Shown here in pieces: positions 8,027-8,297 of a stretch of DNA of 9,689 nucleotides. A program made the position numbers and the translations under genes. The notes under the pieces are model-generated. The model worked only from the letters and a program-made list of their open reading frames with translations. It had not been told where the DNA came from and searched no databases. The DNA comes from Enterobacteria phage P-EibC: sequence record AF151674.1, one strand, 5' to 3'. Within the stretch, counting starts at the first letter, position 1, and every line of letters starts with the position of its first letter.

Positions 8027-8084
8027 GGGGCATGCATGGGACAAAAATGTCTGTTGTGGGGCATTTTGGGGCATGGTTGGGACA
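8027..8084. repeat. Direct repeats GGGGCATG(CA/GT)TGGGACA, two 17-mers plus a partial copy, near the prophage end; candidate integrase/accessory arm-type binding sites
   Basis: ggggcatgcatgggaca at 8027-8043 and ggggcatggttgggaca at 8068-8084 are 15/17 identical, with a partial ggggcat at 8058-8064. They lie 120-175 bp inside the inferred phage/host junction. Confidence 0.3.
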
Positions 8085-8186
8085 CTTTGTTACATATGAA
8101 CTTTGCCGATTTTCATATGACATGGAAATTCAAGAGTTTGATTCTACTAAAGAAAACACATGCTCTTGGGCGTTCTTTAGTGATTT

Positions 8187-8297
8187 TTAAAAATCCCGTA
8201 TCACGCAGTTAAAGTGGCGGGCATACTCTTCAAGGCTGGTGATCCCCAACCGCACCCATTTAGGATGCGACCATTGCGGTAGACCGATGTAAATCAT
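8187..8297 (-). pseudogene. yecE: yecE 5' fragment, truncated by prophage insertion (32 native codons plus 4 phage-derived codons and stop)
   Basis: Minus-strand translation [32 protein letters not shown] matches the N-terminus of E. coli YecE as I recall it, then diverges (IRDF, stop at 8187-8189). The start overlaps the yecD stop as ATGA at 8294-8297, as in K-12. Confidence 0.6.

Follow-up and report, generated by a model that had tools for sequence, protein, structure and literature searches.

We analyzed a 9,689-nt stretch of one strand of Enterobacteria phage P-EibC (AF151674.1), referred to throughout at its full length as the window. On the right, the window consists of E. coli chromosome: aspS starts at position 9171 on the plus strand, and yecD, an intact host gene of the isochorismatase family that lies upstream of yecE, occupies 8294-8860 on the minus strand. 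To the left of a junction within yecE, the DNA is entirely prophage. This part encodes a DUF4376 tail-fibre assembly protein (24-611), a YadA/Eib-like trimeric autotransporter adhesin (970-2484), a 166-aa ORF (2543-3043) for which a Pfam search returned no match, and a 1335-aa S6-peptidase (SPATE-like) autotransporter (3317-7324). The last three are cargo, located between the tail-fibre genes and the attachment site attR. The length of the YadA-like gene differs among relatives. In close relatives, a complete lambdoid tail and head module precedes these genes and the DinI-like gene. The best whole-window matches among complete E. coli genomes had approximately 98-99% identity at 86-92% coverage.

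The last phage gene before attR encodes a DinI-like protein (7691-7939, minus strand; Pfam PF06183, E = 3.6e-17). Its promoter region (7954-8004, minus strand) comprises two LexA-box-like palindromes of the form CTG-N10-CAG, at 7954-7971 and 7982-7999, and a -35 hexamer, TTGACA, at 8004-7999. In phi80, the corresponding place carries annotated LexA sites. A search of 7300-9200 for RNA families gave a single miRNA match, which was at chance level and far below the gathering score.

The junction was characterized by aligning the window with the intact yecD-yecE region of E. coli K-12 MG1655. Positions 8202-8297 were identical to codons 1-32 of yecE, and similarity to yecE was lost abruptly to the left of 8202. 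The truncated yecE reading frame (8187-8297, minus strand) thus consists of 32 host codons followed by the phage-derived residues IRDF and a stop codon, for a total of 36 aa, and its ATG overlaps the stop codon of yecD as ATGA at 8294-8297. The preliminary description had placed a phage/host junction in yecE, with homology ending after codon 32, four phage codons before the stop and a chimeric peptide start-overlapped with yecD; the alignment bears out each of these points. More particularly, yecE is intact in K-12 and is followed there by different downstream sequence, and the left side of the window is lambdoid prophage. The alignment therefore does not refute the junction, and it allowed the core to be mapped. 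A functional product of the 36-aa ORF was considered and set aside: the ORF has no Pfam match, and in the near-identical genome of strain EC2, RefSeq annotates the yecE fragment as a pseudogene lacking the C-terminus. Nothing points to a function except the retained translational coupling to yecD.

The same junction occurs elsewhere. In strain SW070917 (NZ_CM129862.1), it was 99.8% identical to that of the window over 1251 bp. Overall, the dinI-type junction of the window was present in 295 complete E. coli genomes (approximately 5%), and the site was uninterrupted in 4903 of 5426 complete E. coli genomes.

The phage and host sequences share an 11-bp core, CACGCAGTTAA, at 8202-8212, which is common to attL, attR, attP and attB. 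Specifically, it was present in the attR of the window, in the attB of K-12 and in the attL of SW070917 (locus position 2584-2594), and the phiP27 record (AJ298298) annotates the same 11-mer as both attL and attR. Of these 11 bp, all phages compared have GCAGTTAA (8205-8212) in common. As 8202-8212 is common to phage and host, the boundary is not a point at 8201/8202; rather, the alignments place the crossover somewhere within yecE codons 29-32, inside the core. In the empty attB of K-12 (locus 5484-5510, equivalent to window 8196-8222), the core region forms an imperfect inverted repeat, GCCCTCCAC-GCAGTTAAA-GTGGCGGGC, whose arms match at 8/9 positions. This is how two core-type integrase sites flanking an overlap region would be expected to look.

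The core lies within a published attachment site. In the available part of Nakamura et al. 2021 (PMC8112680), yecE is described as an attachment site for Stx1, Stx2 and non-Stx prophages, and PMC9751135 lists it among Stx phage insertion sites. The equivalent of the 21-bp att of the yecE-integrating Stx phages is ATCACGCAGTTAAAGTGGCGG, at 8200-8220 of the window, and the 21-bp features labelled 'duplication due to insertion' in the Stx phage record LC567829 aligned with these positions. Thus, integration in the window took place at the 21-bp att in the 5' part of yecE. The same available part of PMC8112680 gives the prophage-borne copy of this att as GTCATGCAGTTAAAGTGGCGG.

The window contains neither int nor xis nor attL, and all three were deduced from close relatives. 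A second junction and an integrase, which the preliminary description had proposed to locate, were found in SW070917. At the other end of that prophage, the 3' part of yecE is followed by the same 11-bp core, phage DNA, a gene for a 437-aa tyrosine integrase and a gene for a DUF1233 excisionase. With attL taken from relatives, a short core is therefore present at both prophage ends and is single in the empty site.

SW070917 also carries a second mobile element further 3' in yecE (locus 609-2631). This element encodes a 507-aa large serine recombinase with Resolvase, Recombinase and Zn ribbon domains, so yecE carries at least two distinct integration sites.

EC2 (NZ_CP058571.1, 2953410-3008278) was the best-scoring relative. 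Its prophage has a near-identical yecD-side attR and ends at a different integrase that abuts ompW. For this reason, EC2 was set aside as a source of attL and int, and SW070917 was used. The EC2 configuration implies that a yecE prophage and an ompW prophage have undergone an inversion or formed a hybrid. With the ompW-side integrase at its other end, normal attL x attR excision of this prophage would be blocked, and the source of the window could be in the same excision-blocked state.

Beside the junction, on the phage side, a repeat search identified two long repeats, TTTTGGGGCATGCATGGGACA (8023-8043) and TTTTGGGGCATGGTTGGGACA (8064-8084), that are identical at 19 of 21 positions. Each consists of two TGGGRCA heptamers 11 bp apart. 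The distal pair, TGGGGCA-N4-TGGGACA on the plus strand at 8026-8043, has starts at 8026 and 8037, corresponding to -176/-165 when distances are counted from the core start, 8202. The proximal pair has the same form and orientation at 8067-8084, with starts at 8067 and 8078 (-135/-124). Together, the repeats lie 118-176 bp from position 8202. The two 17-mers identical at 15 of 17 positions and the partial copy that had been reported inside the phage side correspond to these elements; the partial copy, GTGGGGCAT (8056-8064), contains a single heptamer, TGGGGCAT, at 8057-8064 on the plus strand (-145). Among the phages compared, this single heptamer was intact only in the window and PhiR49_2: it reads CGGGACG in phiP27 and TAGGACG in CharmingMan, and is deleted in phi80. 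Given this weak conservation, it is doubtful that the heptamer at 8057 is a fifth arm-type site.

The heptamers are too concentrated to be readily explained by composition. Across the whole window, five of nine TGGGRCA heptamers fell within 8026-8084, all on one strand; this makes five same-strand heptamers within 60 bp, versus at most two in 300 shuffles of the whole window. Similarly, the motif TGGGRCA-N4-TGGGRCA occurred twice in the window versus 0 times in 200 shuffles. In 300 dinucleotide-preserving shuffles of 8000-8300, no 21-mer repeat matched at 19 or more of 21 positions, the best being 16/21. Two further TGGGRCA heptamers, inverted, occur at 9201-9216 inside the coding region of aspS and are probably chance matches. 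It could still be argued from the G-rich look of the motif that the repeats are chance or low-complexity sequence and that the truncation of yecE is the end of a plain deletion or rearrangement. Against this, the shuffles did not reproduce the repeats, the junction lies exactly at the published att core, as it does in many independent phages, and 295 complete genomes have the same junction. We regard this explanation as extremely improbable.

The heptamer pairs occur at the same distances from the core in divergent phages. The P arm of phiP27 was approximately 78% identical to that of the window and had its heptamer pairs at exactly the window distances. In CharmingMan, a free phage, attP is contiguous: the P arm, the core and the P' arm are followed directly by int. 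Its heptamer pairs are at -175/-164, -134/-123 and +75/+86, those of the P arm being within 1 bp of the window's. In phi80, a pair is at -166/-155. SW070917 and phiP27 have a P'-arm pair at +75/+86. That of Stx2_EH2201 is at +74/+85, and its sequence from the core to this pair is largely different. Thus, a repeated motif that is unlike the core recurs in both arms at conserved distances (-176/-165, -135/-124 and +75/+86). Arm identity among the compared phages was 75-80%, and the heptamer geometry was kept. When seven sequences were aligned, conservation along the P arm was highest at the proximal pair. The array does vary: Stx2_EH2201 does not have the distal pair and has three tandem heptamers in its place. 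The fetched loci amount to approximately 200 kb and include two 49.5-kb prophage bodies; within them, the paired pattern was confined to att arms.

The integrases of the relatives have a domain suited to such sites. That of SW070917, encoded beside the P' arm and thus outside the window, is a tyrosine integrase with a separate N-terminal arm-binding domain, Arm-DNA-bind_2 (PF12167, E = 9.8e-24), in addition to a Phage_integrase domain (PF00589). Across four integrases that are 76-95% identical overall, residues 1-70 were almost invariant, which fits one shared arm motif. Because the P' pair lies within the 3'-terminal part of int, coding could account for some of its conservation. The residues encoded there nevertheless differ (VPMMPH, VPYMPH and APQMPQ), and the heptamers are kept.

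The preliminary description had proposed that the repeats are arm-type sites for integrase or excisionase, and the occurrence of heptamer pairs at fixed core distances in both arms of divergent phages supports the arm-type assignment. As to the protein that binds them, excisionase has something in its favor: the repeats are direct repeats in the P arm, as are the Xis sites of lambda, and a DUF1233 excisionase is encoded beside int in the relatives. In lambda, however, Xis sites are confined to the P arm, and here the same heptamer pair is found in the P' arm, at +75/+86 and beside int. This presence in the P' arm tips the evidence toward integrase and away from excisionase. Further, Stx2_EH2201 has an Xis with only 50% identity and yet keeps the heptamers unchanged, while CATATGA-containing repeats located closer to the core are replaced in it. 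That the heptamers are excisionase binding sites in place of integrase arm-type sites is accordingly improbable.

A third possibility concerns the neighboring promoter. The first heptamer begins upstream of the dinI-like gene, 22 bp beyond its -35 hexamer, and the repeats might therefore be operators or an upstream element of this SOS-regulated promoter and unrelated to recombination. In phiP27, however, no dinI gene lies beside the P arm, and yet the repeats are at the same offsets from the core; the repeats therefore belong to the recombination module rather than to the dinI promoter. The P' arm, which is far from any dinI, also has the motif, whose position follows the core and not the promoter. 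A role as dinI operators is thus very unlikely. Overall, these comparisons indicate that the repeats beside the junction are very probably integrase arm-type sites. More specifically, by analogy with lambda, the distal pair is a candidate arm-type site like P1 and the proximal pair a candidate like P2. We hold with considerable confidence the combined reading that 8005-8297 is the attR of a lambda-like prophage in the 5' part of yecE and that its heptamers are the P-arm arm-type sites of the integrase.

Other elements were found between the heptamers and the core. Beside the proximal pair, at 8090-8120 on the plus strand, are the CATATGA-containing direct repeats TTACATATGA and TTTCATATGA, 21 bp apart. 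They are conserved in PhiR49_2, CharmingMan and phi80, and take the form CATACGA/CGTATGA in phiP27. Their conservation coincides with that of the excisionase: they are kept in phages with near-identical Xis, and in Stx2_EH2201, with its more divergent Xis, they are replaced by TTCGTCGA repeats. This pattern hints that the CATATGA repeats may be excisionase sites, and we list them as weak candidates. At 8131-8143, 71 bp from the core, the minus strand has a perfect match to the IHF consensus, WATCARNNNNTTR, reading AATCAAACTCTTG. This consensus is short and AT-rich. Phi80, like the window, matches it perfectly at -71, and SW070917, phiP27 and CharmingMan each have a perfect match at +30, in the P' arm. 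Finally, there is an inverted repeat, ACTAAAGAA/TTCTTTAGT, at 8146-8181, and a strongly conserved block, ATGCTCTTGGGCGTTCTTTAGTGATTTTTAAAA, lies next to the core at 8160-8194. Across seven phages, few parts of the P arm were as well conserved as these two elements at 8146-8194. They are possibly a region for a bending protein or for extended core binding. A terminator was also considered for the inverted repeat at 8146-8181 and rejected: the RNA fold was not unusually stable (z = -1.66) and no terminator was predicted.

Comparison with the relatives shows that the junction arose by exchange within the core. A tyrosine integrase of the phiP27/Stx-PPyecE type recombined the phage attP with the host attB inside CACGCAGTTAA. 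The exchange left the P arm on the left and yecE codons 1-32, yecD and aspS on the right, splitting yecE so that its 5' stub reads through four phage codons to a stop. The N-terminal domain of the integrase would bind the heptamers at 8026/8037 and 8067/8078, and perhaps that at 8057, and likewise the P' pair that matches them at the opposite end of the prophage, next to int. By analogy with lambda, IHF would bend the DNA at the consensus at 8131-8143, and the excisionase would probably bind the CATATGA repeats at 8090-8120. The integrase could then bridge the arm heptamers and the core, with the arm folded onto the core, to allow recombination of attL with attR and excision of the prophage.

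Related sequences occur in other prophages. Phi80, mEp237 and PPompW prophages have, before their own att regions, a homologue of the whole attR, including heptamer pairs, core and a 96-nt yecE stub. In the fetched loci, these fossil attRs are at 4005-4266 in phi80, 1160-1440 in PPompW_EH2201 and 60-360 in Stx2_14040. The heptamers are intact to different extents, four of four in phi80 and one of four in PPompW_EH2201. Stx2_14040 is integrated inside a PPompW prophage, and its left junction consists of the fossil P arm, the core and the incoming P' arm with its heptamer pair, an attP-like composite. The available part of PMC8112680 describes the fossil core as an attB within prophages and notes 100 bp of yecE homology; a description of this prophage-borne yecE site as an attR remnant was not seen in that part of the paper. 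Judging from the alignments, the published 'attB-in-PP_1' is the core of a fossil attR. The yecE-derived landing pad in phi80 and PPompW is a whole fossil attR and not merely a piece of yecE.

We further suggest, tentatively and as a possibility that we would not favor at present, that the attB of phi80 and PPompW is a captured complete attR of a yecE phage whose retained P-arm sites matter. If the retained sites do matter, prophage-in-prophage integration would proceed by exchange between attP and attR, so that a left junction resembling attP is rebuilt. The state of the heptamers would then tune the quality of the host prophage as a landing pad.

Much of what is described here was already known: the junction, its core and yecE as the target, and the site is of the lambda kind of att site. 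The junction in the window is an ordinary attR of a lambda-like prophage at yecE, a long-known phage integration site. As for the arm sites, no paper within the collection searched paired 'arm-type' with yecE, and the term had 0 occurrences in the available part of PMC8112680. The map of arm-site heptamers seems to be a small new annotation, and an expected one, of which an earlier description was not found. The finding is mostly of little consequence, as it concerns a routine prophage junction present in approximately 1 in 20 complete E. coli genomes. Two modest gains can be named. One is a testable att map for the phiP27/Stx-PPyecE integrases, including those of Shiga-toxin phages; it takes in the core and the arm-type heptamers, along with candidate sites for IHF and Xis. 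The other is that the phi80/PPompW landing pad can be recognized as a fossil attR.

The best-known system with which the window can be compared is that of lambda. The attP and attR of lambda involve the arm-type sites P1, P2 and P'1-P'3, the IHF sites H1, H2 and H', and the Xis sites X1, X1.5 and X2. The systems are alike in having a tyrosine integrase with an N-terminal arm-binding domain, two clusters of repeated P-arm motifs approximately 120-180 bp from the core, and one P' cluster that is 75-90 bp in and overlaps the 3' end of int. In both, the arm motifs are unlike the core, and a pair of direct repeats is located beside the proximal arm site, which is the place of Xis in lambda. The candidate IHF sites, at matches to a short AT-rich consensus, would likewise correspond to lambda in lying between the arm sites and the core. 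They differ in the arm motif, which here consists of TGGGRCA heptamers in 11-bp pairs and in lambda has a 10-bp consensus, and in the arm-binding domain, which here belongs to family PF12167. The target here is inside a protein-coding gene, which is inactivated, whereas that of lambda is intergenic. In addition, only 13-23 bp separate the P-arm clusters here, too little for an IHF site like H1.

The window is closer to phiP27 and the PPyecE prophages of PMC8112680, with which it shares the same yecE attB, the 11-bp core, the 21-bp att and the P-arm architecture. In the Stx PPyecE phages, as in the window, the final gene ahead of attR is dinI-like; phiP27, in contrast, has no dinI beside its P arm. 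The cargo also differs, being a YadA/Eib-like adhesin and an S6-peptidase autotransporter in the window and not stx or nle genes. The site further resembles 'attB-in-PP_1', the PPompW/phi80-type site represented in phi80 by the pseudogene PHI80_28, with which it has in common the core, the 96-nt 5' fragment of yecE and a homologous P arm. However, the prophage-borne copies, as given in the available part of PMC8112680, are approximately 87% identical to yecE and are followed by phage DNA. In the window, by contrast, the stub matches K-12 yecE at every position and runs on into yecD and aspS, which identifies the site as the chromosomal one and not a prophage-borne copy.
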